Shown here piece by piece: positions 22,701 through 28,700 of a DNA stretch of 37,018 nt. Every line of letters starts with the position of its first letter. The first letter of the stretch is position 1. Both the position numbers and the translations under genes were made by a program. The stretch is from Collodictyon triciliatum (lineage: Eukaryota). The notes under the pieces were generated by a model. That model was not told the DNA's origin and did no database searches. It worked only from the letters and a program-made list of their open reading frames with translations. The stretch is from NCBI GenBank assembly GCA_043381765.1, contig JBHJMP010000034.1, positions 1-37,018 of the forward strand, in the 5' to 3' direction.

Positions 22701-25700
22701 NNNNNNNNNNNNNNNNNNNNNNNNNNNNNNNNNNNNNNNNNNNNNNNNNNNNNNNNNNNNNNNNNNNNNNNNNNNNNNNNNNNNNNNNNNNNNNNNNNNN
22801 NNNNNNNNNNNNNNNNNNNNNNNNNNNNNNNNNNNNNNNNNNNNNNNNNNNNNNNNNNNNNNNNNNNNNNNNNNNNNNNNNNNNNNNNNNNNNNNNNNNN
22901 NNNNNNNNNNNNNNNNNNNNNNNNNNNNNNNNNNNNNNNNNNNNNNNNNNNNNNNNNNNNNNNNNNNNNNNNNNNNNNNNNNNNNNNNNNNNNNNNNNNN
23001 CACTGTCACATTCTAATTTATTTGACTTTTTTCATAGTTGAATCATGAATCTATCAGACAATACTTGATAAATGTAGAATACATGGTTTTTAATCTAAAA
23101 TATGTAGTCATATTTTTATTTGCTCTTGACATTTTTTTTAAAAGAAAAAACATATTATTGCAGATGCTTTCAGCCCAAGTAATGACGCCCTCGGCTCTGG
23201 CTCTGACAGAAAGCTTTTCAAAAAATGCAATTGTTGGTGTCTACGTGGCGATGAAATCCAAGGATAGTCTTCTGTTCTATTCATCGGAAAGGTCTCACCG
23301 GCTCGTTGTTGTTGATTCTGAAAGGAAGCTGTACACTGAGAAGCTTATTCACCGTGCGGACGATGACCACTTTGTATTTCCGACAGAGCGTAATGAATCA
23401 CCGGCGCGGTTCGTGTTCTTAACTATTATATCATTTGTTGTATATCGACCTCGGTCACCGATTATTATTATTATTATTATTATTATTATTATTATTATTA
23501 TTATTATTATTATTATTATTATTATTATTATTATTATTATTATTATTATTATTATNNNNNNNNNNNNNNNNNNNNNNNNNNNNNNNNNNNNNNNNNNNNN
23601 NNNNNNNNNNNNNNNNNNNNNNNNNNNNNNNNNNNNNNNNNNNNNNNNNNNNNNNTTATGTTTTGTTATGTTTTGTTATGTTTTGTTATGTTTTGTTATG
23701 TTTTGTTATGTTTTGTTATGTTTTGTTATGTTTTGTTATGTTTTGTTATGTTTTTATTAATTTAGTAGTCCTTTATAAATACAATCCCATATGTTTCACA
23801 AATTTTTCAATACACAAATAGGACCAGCCATCTCTTTGATGTTAAGTCCTGGTTCCCCTGGCGACATATACATCCCATGCTCTGCTTATGTAAGACTGCC
23901 AACGTTCATAGTTCAATCTGTGGATGTCACAAATACGCTATCCTTTTCAACAGAAGAAAAGGTTTCGGTGTCCCTCTATGAAAACCCATCTCTTCTCCTG
24001 GGACCAAAAGAATCAGTAATAACCCTCCATCCACCCACTCTACTTATGTTGCAGGTTTAAAGAAAAATGCAAACCATTCATTTTAATCCTATTCGTTATT
24101 ATATGAGATTTTGACTCTATTAAAAGTAAATATCGTGTTTAGTATTTTATCGGCGGCATGGCTTCTTTTGTTGATCTCGAGTTGAAATCACCTCCCAGAG
24201 GGATCTATCACCTGACATTTATTTCTTCGCCGTTGACTTCATGCAAAGTTTCCATTTCGATCACCCAAGGTAACAGAGACATTCTTCAAAGGTGTATCCG
24301 TACTATTGTCATATTTTTCTATCTCATTTTGGTCTTGTTTTTGTTGATTTATTTTTTACACATAACTTATTTTAAAATTTAACGAGTGGAACTTTCACGT
24401 AGAAAATAGAATTTTTTATTTTTTATTTTTTATTTTTTATTTTTATTTTTTATTTTGCTCTTTCATCGCTCTAGATTATATATATTAACAGACAGTATAA
24501 AATATAGGTCAGTTTTCTCAACTCCTTGTAGAATGCCAGGATTGCAATATCCCCTATATATCCATCAAGGAAGTTCTTTTACCCCCTATCAGTATTACCA
24601 CAGTGGATGCAGGCCTCGGATTGGTTCCCAGTCAGAATATTTCAGTTCAAGCGGTAAGTGTCCAGCATCGATGATAATTATTTACTCTCATATGTGTATC
24701 ATTATAACAATAGCTTTTAATTACTGAAATTTGATAGATTTGCAATACAACATCAATTATTGGAGATTTATCTGTGTTCATCAAAGATGGGAAGGCACTT
24801 TTTACGAAGCTAATACTTTTCAAACCCCCTCCTGGAGTCCACAAGATATTTTTTGAATCCACCGGTGTAATATCAGCCCCACAGCATATTACGATTGTTA
24901 TAGGTCCTTCTTCGCGTACCTTCCTTTATTTTTCTTGCATTTTTTCATCTCCTTTGTCTTATATCGCTATGATATAGAGAATAATTAGTAAATTATTATA
25001 AAATTTCTGCAATTGGCCGGATTGTTTAGGCCCCGCAACCAGTTTATCATTTTCGTATACTGGTCCAAATGAATTGCCTACAGCGGTTAGTGTTTTCATC
25101 CCCAGCATCACTGTATTTTCAGTGGATGTAAGTGGAGCTCCAGTTGGTGCGAAGGACCCGATTCGTGTTATTACTTTGGTTTGAAATCCTCATCTCCTAT
25201 ATGCTAATGCTATATTTTGACAACATCGCTTATGCATTTGAAACAAAATTGTCAGCTGCACTAATTTTGCTCACTCGTGAATATAGCGCATCTTGGATCC
25301 CAATGGAGTTGAAATAATATCGGCGTCTATGGTAATTTCTTCTTTCTTTGTTTGTTTTTATTTGTATAATTTACTCATTCCTATTTTCCTTGGATTATGG
25401 TATTGTCCTTCTTTTCTGCTTATTTTTTCTATAATTTATGATTTTATTTTCATTTTTCATCCAAGCGGAGTACCAAAAGTATTTATATCTTTCATAGGGG
25501 AAGCAAATGAAAGAAGGTGTTGTTTTGTTTGATGATGTAAAGCTAAGTTCACCAAAGATCGGAAGCTATCGCTTAATATTCGAAAGTAGCGGGTTGACTT
25601 GTGACCCACTCTTTGTAAATGTGATTCCTTGTAAGTATTTATTATATATAATTCGTTTTACTTCATTTAATTACTCAATACGATTTGTGCTGGATGATGG

Positions 25701-28700
25701 ATTTTGCCTTCATTCATCATTTGTTATGTAAATATTTGAATTATACCCCTAGTACCATTAACTCACAAACGCTTCAATAGCTACCTATGCCACAAAAATT
25801 ATTGTCAGCAATCCGGAGGTCTTGTTGAAAGCAAGCAGTCTTGTGACGGTTGTTCTATATTTTATATTTGTTTTTTCTCTCATTTCATCGTATGCAATCG
25901 ATTATTTAACCCGTTTAATAATATAGTCATTAAAAAGCTGGAAACTCTTGTTTTTTATAAAAAAAAAAAATGAAGGAACTATTTAATTTTAGATACCTGA
26001 GATACGGATATATGCCACTGACGCAGGAGGCTCTATAATATACCAATCTGCCAAACCCTTTGACCCTGTTGTGGAGTTATCTAGTGATTATATAGTCGCA
26101 CTCAATACTACTCAATCTGTATTCGATAATGGTGTATGTATATTTTCTTGGGTTTCAATATACAACCCGCCAATCGGGAAGATACCTTTTCGATTTTCAA
26201 ATACAGACCTTGGGACTACTGAAATGGTTGTGGAGATTCGTCCTGGTGAGTTTATATCATATATTTTGAAACTTAATCATGGTTTTCGGTATACAACAGT
26301 ATTGAATGCGCTAGTAAATGAACCCTTCAGTGAAGTGATAATTTGTCCTCTATCTGAGATTATAACTGTTCTTTTCTACCTTTGAAAAGGTGACCCCGCA
26401 TCTATTACTGTCACCTATCCTACTTTGGCAGAGGTAAAAGTAGATTCAGTGTATGTCTCGATTCCCAGTATTTATTTGGTGGCAGAAGATGATTTGGGCA
26501 ATCACGTGACTCGGAAAGAGGCCAACTTTACCATTAATGTTAAATCTGGTAAATATAATATCTAGATTACCCAGATTATCTTGTCGCTTTGTAATTTTAT
26601 CGCTTTCGTGGCAGTTATGATTGTTTCAGAATACATGAAACAAATTTTGTTTAAATTGTCTTAAAATTATTTAGATATTAAATGTGGGTTGAACGGCACT
26701 GTGTCTAGAGCTATGATTGATGGTTTTGTAATATTTGATAACTTGAGTCTGTATTTGCCTAAAGCAGGAGAATGTATTCTTGCTTTTTTCTCAGATAGTA
26801 TACAAGGAGATCAGTTTCATGTGAAAATACTGCCTGGTAAATTTTGTAGATGGCTCTCATATTTTTAAAAATATTCTTATTTATTCAGTATTGATATTAT
26901 TATTATGATTATTATTATTATGATTATTATGATTATTATGNNNNNNNNNNNNNNNNNNNNNNNNNNNNNNNNNNNNNNNNNNNNNNNNNNNNNNNNNNNN
27001 NNNNNNNNNNNNNNTATGATTATTATTATGATTATGATTATGATTATGGTTTATTCATTAATTCATTTTGCATATAAAATACAACAATAAAAACCTCTAT
27101 CAACTTATACAATTCTGACTAAATTTATAGACACAAACTGAATGAACATCCTCGATTTTTCTTTATCATTAGAGAAATTGGCATTCCGGACCGAAATGAG
27201 TCTGATTCATCTACTTTATTCGCAATCTCCTTGGATGGGCACTACATTCTCACTGTTGGGCACTGGGATAATAGTAACTATTTTTGTTCATCCATTTGTA
27301 AAGCAAATGGCATCATTCTAACTTCAAAAGCACGTGTGACCTAAAATGACATGAAATCAGGCTTCAAGATACATGAATGCGATACTGGGAGAATATGTGT
27401 ATCCACTTCAAATCATCGAAGTATACTATATAACATTTAATAATTATGGAATCGCCAATTATGTTGTACTTATAGTTTAGAACGATACGAGAATAAGCTC
27501 AATATGTAATTACCATTAAAGCTTGAAATTTCAATATTTGCTCCTTTTTTTCTTTCAGGTCGAGTTACATGCGTGACCACAGGAGAAGAAGGGTATTTTG
27601 CAACGGGCTCGCAGGATTGCACGGTGCATGTTTGGCAATTCGATATGTCGCAACTATCTTCATCGTTTAATATGATACCAGAGCGACCCCGTCATATTCT
27701 TTATGGACACGATGATGAGGTGATAACCCTTCTAGAAGTATATATGTCGCCATTTCAATGGGAATCCAAAAGTATTGTTGTTATTGTTATTGTTTGTTTT
27801 GTTTGTTTTGTTATTGTTATTGTTTTTGTTTTTGTTATTGTTTTTGTTATTGTTTTTGTTATTGTTTTTGTTATTGTTTTTGTTATTGTTTTTTATTGTT
27901 TTTTATTGTTTGTTTTGTTATTGTTTTTGTTATTGTTATTGTTTTTGTTATTGTTATTTGTTTATTTGTTTATTTGTTTATTTGTTTATTTGTTTATTTG
28001 TTTATTTTTCTTCTCTTATTAATACTATTACACGAATTATCATTTTAGATTACAGGCATCACAATTGACGTTTCACTCGATATGGTGGTAAGCTCATCCA
28101 AGGTATGTGTATCTGTAAGAGCATTCCATCTGATATTTCATCAGCGGTATACTCTTTCCTTTTTCTGTCCTTTAATGCCTTTGACCTATTGTTGTTTGCT
28201 CACTGTAACTATTATGTACATCTAGTGAAATTTTCCCCAGTAAACTGAATATCCCTGATGAATTTATTTAATTATTTAGGACGGGTCTATGATTATCCAT
28301 CGACTTTACCATGGAGACTACGTCCGCTCCATTTTTCATCCAGCTAAACAACCATTCACGTTTGTGGCTGTGACTCCAGAAGGATATATCGTCGCATTCA
28401 GCATGGTAATCAATATGGCCTCTGTTTGAGATGAGTCGATCATTATTTGAAATGGATTATTAACAGTTGGAGGTGGAAAAATTACCAGAGAAAATGACAC
28501 ACTAGTATGTCATAGCTACGTGATAAATCTGTGGAGGGCATAATACCAATTTAATTCATTTCTTGTTCTAGGATGATTTAATGCTTCGAGTTTATTCTCT
28601 TAATGGGGAACTTCTTGTTCAGTGCGATGTACCCAATCGTATCCGTGCATTAACCGTGTCAGCAGACGGAAAATATGTCATCAGCGGCGGGGACAATGGA

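Follow-up and report, generated by a model that had tools for sequence, protein, structure and literature searches.

The 37,018-nucleotide stretch of Collodictyon triciliatum DNA that we analysed (the window) raises the question of why five tandem Ig-like repeats lie inside a BEACH gene, on the same strand and between exons of that gene. They could be a domain inserted into the BEACH protein, a nested gene, or a piece of another gene misplaced during scaffolding. We therefore examined the coding block, the splicing of the host gene, the relatives of the repeat and the joints of the scaffold.

An intact spliced block of five repeats

The block is encoded by 11 GT-AG exons of the forward strand (23822-26836), and the frame is kept across all joins without a stop. 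Repeat R1 (23822-24269, 119 aa) is made of exons 23822-24054 and 24143-24269, and R2 (24508-24903, 103 aa) of exons 24508-24653 and 24738-24903. Three exons (25030-25178, 25287-25331 and 25498-25630) form R3 (25030-25630, 108 aa). R4 (25781-26245, 106 aa), whose 84-aa exon models as a beta-sandwich, consists of exons 25781-25848 and 25993-26245, and R5 (26390-26836, 106 aa) of exons 26390-26548 and 26675-26836, with a phase-1 donor at its end. The original prediction of an intact, same-strand block of about 550 aa thus holds at all coordinates, with AG and GT at the exon ends; its six N-glycosylation sequons, its phase-1 boundaries at both ends and the two flanking N-gaps are all present in the sequence.

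The block is 546 aa long with the acceptor at 24508, against 538 aa with that at 24532, and the repeat consensus is better fitted by the former. When the joined exons were shuffled by base, none of 2000 shuffles was free of stops, a control that takes no account of the choice of splice sites by the analyst. The repeats are 103-119 aa long and share 20-33% pairwise identity. In the 538-aa model, the alignment score was reached by at most 9 of 1000 shuffles for 8 of the 10 repeat pairs, and by 42 and 51 for the other two. The block starts with an acceptor and ends with a donor, and has no start or stop of its own in the available sequence inside the host intron. It is not covered by the X1 cDNA, and none of the runs listed as containing it has an RNA label; neither says anything about its expression.

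The BEACH gene is spliced past the block

Upstream of the block, on the forward strand, the host gene presents PH-BEACH and BEACH exons (19996-22373; Pfam PH_BEACH E 1e-10, Beach E 2e-16), followed by an exon (23164-23408) that aligns to NBEAL-type homologues and encodes the start of the WD40 region that lies after BEACH. The rest of this region is encoded downstream, on the same strand, by exons 27173-27273, 27361-27420, 27559-27719, 28049-28102, 28280-28405, 28572-28726 and 28826-28952, in a frame that is open to the stop in the last exon. Exon 27361-27420 is additional to those first described for this gene. The block had been placed between BEACH and WD40; instead, it interrupts the WD40 region after its first exon. 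The WD40 tail matches Pfam NBCH_WD40 at E 9e-5, under the curated cut-off, and a homologue HMM at E 4e-57.

As scaffolded, the intron that holds the block (23409-27172, forward strand) measures 3764 bases, of which 305 are flank bases once the block and the gaps are subtracted. X1 cDNA contigs cover 23158-23269 and 23336-23407, and then pass directly to 27173: the contig that crosses this joint connects 23408 to 27173 at GT..AG, skips the block and contains two further GT..AG joints, among the first of the downstream exons. It is more than 99% alike to the genome, with a depth of 16 and a short side of 72 letters. The clean phase-2 join foreseen for the BEACH exons is therefore the one used in this RNA, which comes from a single contig of a single study. 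Without the block, the 344-aa WD40 tail stays open to the stop, and homologue HMM scores are 181 bits for the phase-2 skip vs. 172 bits for a phase-1 skip.

Because the cDNA skips the block and the WD40 tail is complete without it, we take it as almost certain that the block does not belong to BEACH. Minus the block, the host gene does not differ from NBEAL-type BEACH proteins, which likewise have PH-BEACH, BEACH and a WD40 tail and are collinear across the junction. No match to the repeat HMM was found in 13 BEACH homologues (all of 2000 aa or less, and fungal in all 8 with an organism name). A homologue search from the exon at 23164 gave none, and a metagenome match to a BEACH-side exon was rejected, as it concerned a 53%-GC contig alike only around the seed peptide. 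The best explanation for BEACH itself is an ordinary short intron at this place and a normal WD40 propeller.

We also considered a minor BEACH isoform in which the block would be included as a cassette, by joints from 23389 to 23822 and from 26836 to 27175, adding five Ig domains to a loop of the WD40 propeller. The phase-1 sites proposed for it at 23389/90 and 27174/75 are indeed present and in frame, the block, with phase 1 at either end, is symmetrical, the join is stop-free over 655 aa of the modelled stretch, and assembled contigs lose rare isoforms. However, the transcript found joins the flanking exons in phase 2 without the block, and the two sites needed score 0.2 (donor) and 0.8 (acceptor), vs. 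5.8 and 4.1 for the donor and acceptor in use. None of the 42 annotated sites scores as low (donors 0.9-10.0, acceptors 1.7-9.1); these sites come from our own annotation and were scored in-sample. In addition, none of the 42 acceptors uses the second AG of an AGAG. Such an isoform is very improbable.

The repeat is predicted to be an Ig-like domain

For 84 of the ~106 residues of R4, the predicted model (pLDDT 84) has seven strands and no helix, and its best structural matches are Ig-type domains (top Z 6.7). On this model, the repeat is an Ig-like beta-sandwich of ~100 aa, which bears out the fold first proposed. The closest structures are the C-terminal Ig domains of GH2 enzymes (Z 6.7, rmsd 2.5, 79 residues), InvE (Z 5.8) and FdeC (Z 5.6), where a Z under 8 may mean a common fold alone. 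Foldseek found no match to the repeat model in the PDB at E ≤ 0.001. When the repeat alignment was searched against PDB sequences, designed “Pizza” propeller proteins came top (best E 2e-4) over a 36-position piece, a result judged spurious.

The suggested likeness to bacterial Ig repeats agrees with these structural matches and with the bacterial domain Invasin_D3, matched at E ≤ 0.1 by 13 of the 36 members of the repeat alignment, all 13 being database homologues. From the block exons, scanned singly, no Pfam match to Invasin_D3, Big_1 or Glyco_hydro2_C5 was obtained, and the scan of ten of them gave only one chance match (E 0.16). The block differs from bacterial Ig-like surface repeats in being an intron-rich, eukaryotic gene. 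The likeness to SMCHD1 linkers stands as a lead: block exon 9 and the first repeat of a paralogue (C4822, see below) match, with ESM Atlas feature scores of 0.87 and 0.89, clusters in which 13-46% of the members carry the SMCHD1 Ig-like domain PF26198, scores under 0.9 being leads only. Pfam gave no hit, and the scan of 22 homologues turned up neither a GHKL nor a hinge domain.

A family of giant protist membrane proteins

A homologue search with the block returned 487 proteins at E ≤ 0.001, and the repeat was present in 148 of the 150 listed (median 12 copies). These proteins of 1300-6800 aa, many of them with a filamin and IPT/TIG head, were found in Mantamonas plastica, Rigifila ramosa, Fabomonas tropica and Clastostelium recurvatum, and in the green algae Mesostigma viride, Nephroselmis pyriformis and Micromonas pusilla, i.e. 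in CRuMs, an ancyromonad, an amoebozoan and early green algae. Their layout, read from transcript-derived homologues, is filamin, IPT/TIG, 7-18 repeats, a Cys-rich region and 4-8 predicted membrane helices. The part after the array amounts to 600-1300 aa, including an Ephrin_rec_like / DUF7630 region and the helices. The surface character first suggested from the sequons is supported.

The block shares the repeat and its tandem arrangement with these giant proteins, of which EP00003_Mantamonas_plastica_P017629 is an example, at an identity of just 24-27%. It aligns with EP00004_Rigifila_ramosa_P001931 over ~490 aa (27%, E 6e-28). The CxxC of R2 was absent from the repeats of 16 homologues (220 HMM matches). 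The head and the membrane tail of the family are detached from the block in the present assembly. A metagenome scan with block exon 9 gave nothing. In the literature covered, which lies outside most subscription journals, we found nothing on this repeat family or on BEACH-Ig fusions. The repeat protein had been called uncharacterised, which fits this literature, but it has hundreds of relatives in databases.

The homologues also bear on the cassette isoform considered above. BEACH or its WD40 was found in none of the 150 listed homologues, so that the two domain types occur together neither there nor in the 13 BEACH homologues. Moreover, the eukaryotic homologues place the repeats before a Cys-rich region and membrane helices, a membrane-protein setting at odds with BEACH proteins, which are cytosolic.

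Paralogues and probable position of the block in its array

Two contigs of the same genome carry paralogues with filamin, IPT/TIG and the pre-array region as in the homologues. In C656, these domains are followed by eight repeats, after which a ninth begins. C4822, whose last exon is 5534-5645, has three repeats after them and then reaches a phase-1 donor, the contig ending in a T-rich microsatellite. The first half of R2 gives 77 with repeat 5 of C656 and at most 45 with the other eight, and both R2 and this repeat 5 have a CxxC. This match, a landmark picked out post hoc, would imply that exactly three repeats precede the block. Three, five and one repeats make nine, as in C656 and in three Rigifila proteins. 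However, whole-repeat register tests were not significant (ranks 1155 of 6720 and 10532 of 40320), and R4 is closest to C656 repeat 6 (50), above repeat 7 (43). The block probably corresponds to repeats 4-8 of 9. C4822 is a reasonably good candidate for its upstream neighbour.

The searches for other pieces of this gene gave the following results. Exons 9, 11, 4 and 7 of the block, used as queries, found no near-identical copy elsewhere in the genome. This own-genome search is insensitive, the C656 query having missed its counterpart in C4822, and further paralogues may therefore exist. For an upstream partner, six other contigs have the 10-base microsatellite unit that opens the piece carrying the block, none with repeats nearby. 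Contig searches did not recover the part expected downstream (a ninth repeat, the Cys-rich region and the membrane domain), and the 18 stretches scanned on the basis of its microsatellite, from the 100 of 127 pattern matches listed, have no repeats. One candidate, C1794, was rejected, being by eye an LRR-type membrane gene. Searches with DUF7630 and the Rigifila protein were dominated by an intronless family, at none of whose loci the repeat was present, and terminal-repeat queries gave chance hits or nothing.

Probable misplacement during scaffolding

The left piece of the scaffold ends in an (ATT)n microsatellite (23460-23555). It is followed by a gap of 100 N (23556-23655), probably a placeholder of unmeasured size, as 11 of the 26 distinct gaps in the loci examined are exactly 100 N long. 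The piece that carries the block opens with the 10-base T-rich microsatellite (23656-23755). On the other side, an ATT/ATG microsatellite (26890-27050) flanks a gap of 74 N (26941-27014) and belongs to the same repeat family as the (ATT)n of the left flank. No read or contig bridging either gap, or linking C4822 to the block, was found among the 4 of 9 sequencing runs aligned; matches in X3 were short and mostly less than 90% alike, and X8 and X9 contained next to no query words.

Of the explanations first proposed, a misplaced contig is favoured, as the cDNA skips the block and the intron would otherwise measure 3764 bases, while the other introns measured range from 57 to ~330. We consider it likely that the block is a real internal piece of a separate giant membrane-protein gene, misplaced into the BEACH intron. 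The scaffolder would have set it between two BEACH pieces, since all the pieces concerned end in microsatellites, and the sole BEACH transcript found splices past it.

Alternatively, the block could truly lie in the BEACH intron, unspliced into BEACH, either as part of a nested gene or as a recent duplicate that the assembly collapsed with its parent copy. At the scaffold gaps at 21760 and 22538, the BEACH pieces are joined in the expected order, so that the scaffolder is usually right here. One microsatellite family spans the 74-N gap, as expected of a true join, and what the cDNA joint shows is that the interval is intronic. As the 100-N gap was probably not sized, a nested gene on the same strand could have C4822 and its C-terminal exons inside wrongly sized gaps. 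A complete nested gene, as one of the first proposals had it, nevertheless misfits the scaffold, because the 600-1300 aa that follow the array are too large for a gap sized at 74 bases. Furthermore, the intron would be more than 10 times longer than the longest other measured. Decay would be expected in an old orphan copy, but the block retains all of its 546 codons and 22 splice sites intact; a second near-identical copy was not found, though a collapsed one would stay invisible. We regard a true intronic location as unlikely.

The block might also derive from another eukaryote whose DNA was assembled together with that of the host, given that, at very low cover, all reads in X2 fall on the block and all those in X4 on the BEACH side. 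These four and two reads are too few to show separate occurrence, and the block, the window, C656 and C4822 are alike in GC (~0.33) and intron lengths. This origin is the least probable of all.

Significance

The combination of BEACH and Ig-like repeats is most likely an assembly error, of little significance as first posed. It calls for caution, as pieces of this draft that are bounded by microsatellites and 100-N gaps can be in the wrong gene. Were the scaffold right after all, a segment of a surface-receptor stalk would have been copied into the BEACH intron and rarely included as a phase-1 cassette in the WD40 loop, which is highly doubtful. This would be exon shuffling in progress, from a surface receptor to a cytosolic BEACH protein, giving a trafficking scaffold a five-domain Ig extension.

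The repeat marks an apparently undescribed family of giant proteins, a modest side result. In these proteins, the repeats may form an extracellular, glycosylated stalk, perhaps grown by tandem duplication of phase-1-bounded modules. It may rest on the Cys-rich linker and the multi-helix membrane domain and keep lectin-like, filamin and IPT/TIG head domains at a distance from the cell. Such an arrangement would point to an adhesion or contact receptor, possibly for prey or substrate. If the family is monophyletic, this would be an old eukaryotic design of adhesion receptor.

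Structure and fold of the repeats

The window is the whole of scaffold G000:C34, from a 75-Mb assembly fragmented into 14,576 pieces. On its forward strand, the 11 exons at 23822-26836 all have canonical ends and, once joined, encode 546 amino acids without a stop (538 with the acceptor at 24532), that is five repeats (R1-R5) of 103-119 amino acids with a mutual identity of 20-33%. For 8 of the 10 repeat pairs, the alignment score was reached by at most 9 of 1000 shuffles. The block of five Ig-like repeats described in the original prediction is thus confirmed, and the six N-glycosylation sequons and both N-gaps (23556-23655 and 26941-27014) reported with it are present at their places. 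The intact reading frame rules out a decayed orphan copy. Each repeat of the block begins and ends at a phase-1 intron, as do all complete repeats (16/16) of the block and of its paralogues on contigs C656 and C4822, a pattern consistent with an array that grew as entire modules were duplicated in tandem.

The longest exon of R4 (84 amino acids, lacking about the first 22 residues of the repeat) is predicted to form seven strands (pLDDT 84, pTM 0.68). Foldseek returned no significant match for this model; with VIA-align, C-terminal Ig domains of GH2 enzymes ranked first (Z 6.7, rmsd 2.5, 79 residues), followed by invasin-type and filamin domains. These matches to a predicted model speak for an Ig-like sandwich of a generic type but for no particular function, and the likeness to SMCHD1 (scores 0.87-0.89) is a lead only.

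Host BEACH gene and splicing

The exons upstream of the block match Pfam PH_BEACH and Beach. When the block is left out, eight exons at 23164-28952 give an open frame of 344 amino acids closing with a stop, which aligns over its full length with the part that follows BEACH in nine homologues (E 4e-57). Judging from this alignment, the block splits the WD40 region after the first WD40 exon.

Four of the nine listed sequencing runs were compared with 23100-27760. In run X1, a single 957-base contig (99+% alike, depth 16) splices 23408 to 27173 at GT..AG, with a short side of 72 letters; this is the phase-2 join, skipping the block, that had been predicted. The same contig carries joints from 27273 to 27361 and from 27420 to 27559, and a loose end reading as the next exon, at 28049. 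The RNA nature of the run is a guess, but the three splice junctions, together with a loose end that we take to be a cDNA template-switch adaptor, show it to be cDNA. The join is seen in one contig of a single study, which may be related to the source of the assembly, and rare isoforms are lost from contigs. Four X2 reads (99+% alike) lie inside the block and two X4 reads on the BEACH side; no sequence from the four runs bridges a gap in this region. The exon closing the BEACH domain is absent from the sequence (gap 22538-23000), and its 3' part can be read in a 97-base X1 loose end that precedes 23158. At 27170-27175 there is a tandem AGAG acceptor, of which the 957-base X1 contig uses the first AG only.

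Splicing of the block into BEACH as a phase-1 cassette (23389 to 23822 and 26836 to 27175) would keep the reading frame. On a splice-site matrix built from 42 donors and 42 acceptors, its donor scores 0.2 vs. 0.9-10.0 among 42 annotated donors and its acceptor 0.8 vs. 1.7-9.1 among 42 annotated acceptors, these in-sample and somewhat flattering ranges coming from our own annotation of the block and paralogues; the sites actually used in BEACH score 5.8 and 4.1, respectively. Such a cassette is very unlikely. BEACH or WD40 queries matched 0 of the 150 listed repeat homologues, the repeat HMM matched 0 of 13 BEACH homologues, and no paper on BEACH-Ig fusions was found among titles and abstract openings. 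The combination of BEACH with Ig repeats is probably not genuine.

Location of the block

The other introns measured span 57 to about 330 bases; the one bearing the block spans 3764, or 305 plus the gap without it. At exactly 100 N, the left gap has the same length as 11 of the 26 gaps in the loci examined, which suggests an unsized placeholder. The left flank closes with (ATT)n, and the block end and the right flank start are both ATT/ATG repeats, so that the two flanks could join directly, which would explain a scaffolding confusion. We regard misplacement of the block by the assembly as the probable explanation. The repeats on either side of the right gap also fit a genuine junction there, and two other gaps of the scaffold link BEACH pieces in the correct order, which counts against misplacement. 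A whole nested gene would have to fit 600-1300 further residues into the 74 N of the right gap, and a true intronic location is unlikely. Four of the block exons, used as queries, found no near-identical parent copy in the assembly; a recent duplicate collapsed in the assembly, an unlikely alternative, would escape such a search. A foreign origin of the block, from a second, co-assembled eukaryote, is highly improbable.

Two other contigs of the assembly carry members of this repeat family. Contig C656 continues unbroken from filamin and IPT/TIG through eight repeats into the beginning of a ninth of terminal type, which rules it out as the home of the block. This intron-rich paralogue (L039, L040; minus strand) shows LamG-like and EGF-like regions by eye and is cut at a microsatellite. 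Contig C4822, the likely upstream neighbour of the block, carries filamin, IPT/TIG, three repeats and a phase-1 donor, and ends in a T-rich microsatellite whose strand orientation matches that of the T-rich repeat at the block's opening. When the CxxC-bearing first half of R2 (a landmark picked post hoc) is aligned with the C656 repeats, repeat 5 gives a score of 77 and the remaining ones no more than 45, so three repeats would precede the block. Three repeats from C4822, five from the block and a terminal one add up to nine, the number also present in C656 and in three Rigifila proteins. R4 is closer to C656 repeat 6 than to repeat 7, which counts against this register, and whole-repeat register tests of the placement were not significant. 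Our own-genome search may miss further paralogues; with the queries used, no downstream continuation of the block was found in the assembly.

Other features of the scaffold and assembly

A dispersed repeat at 29406-30489, with copies 83-93% identical at six other loci examined, has a minus-strand frame (29845-30147) matching zf-RVT (E 2e-6) and, from its sequence, is likely a truncated non-LTR retroelement end. Downstream of BEACH lies a putative polycystin-2-like channel gene (about 31570-37018, forward strand), with exons matching Polycystin_dom and PKD_channel. DUF7630 has at least 149 matches on many contigs (L045-L095), mostly in frames that lack introns, span several hundred to 3500 amino acids and bear Cys-rich repeats and a multi-helix tail; genes of this kind in an otherwise intron-rich assembly suggest either a large expansion or the presence of a second eukaryote. 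Contig C1794 (L155, 1-4270) carries a gene that, by eye, combines leucine-rich repeats with a Cys-rich stretch and several membrane helices.

Homologues and putative function

A profile of the second half of the repeat matched 487 proteins (E ≤ 0.001) among 1.84 billion representatives; once iterated, it found the repeat in 148 of the 150 listed homologues, with a median of 12 copies. Visual inspection and Pfam matches (Big_1, Big_2, a Por secretion tail) give many homologues a bacterial look. The organisms were looked up for 20 listed homologues of eukaryotic appearance: seven from Mantamonas plastica, four from Rigifila ramosa, one each from Fabomonas tropica, Clastostelium recurvatum, Mesostigma viride and Nephroselmis pyriformis, one clustering with Micromonas pusilla and four without an organism name. 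Pfam domains in 22 full homologues were Ephrin_rec_like (13), IPT/TIG (10), filamin (6) and the PF06011 TRP domain (4). Arrays hold 7-18 repeats, and 4-8 hydrophobic segments follow them in 12 homologues picked for their C-terminal tail from a set including four more. Some homologues have lectin-type matches near the head (Laminin_G_3, Pentaxin, F5/8-like), all under Pfam cut-offs. No paper on this repeat family was found among titles and abstract openings. The block adds a new member to a kind of Ig-stalk surface protein that has no name yet but is well represented. In such a protein, the repeats would form an extracellular glycosylated stalk, lengthened by tandem duplication of whole phase-1-bounded modules and holding lectin-type head domains away from the cell, while a Cys-rich linker and a membrane bundle would anchor the stalk or pass on contact; taken as a whole, we give this mechanism roughly an even chance.
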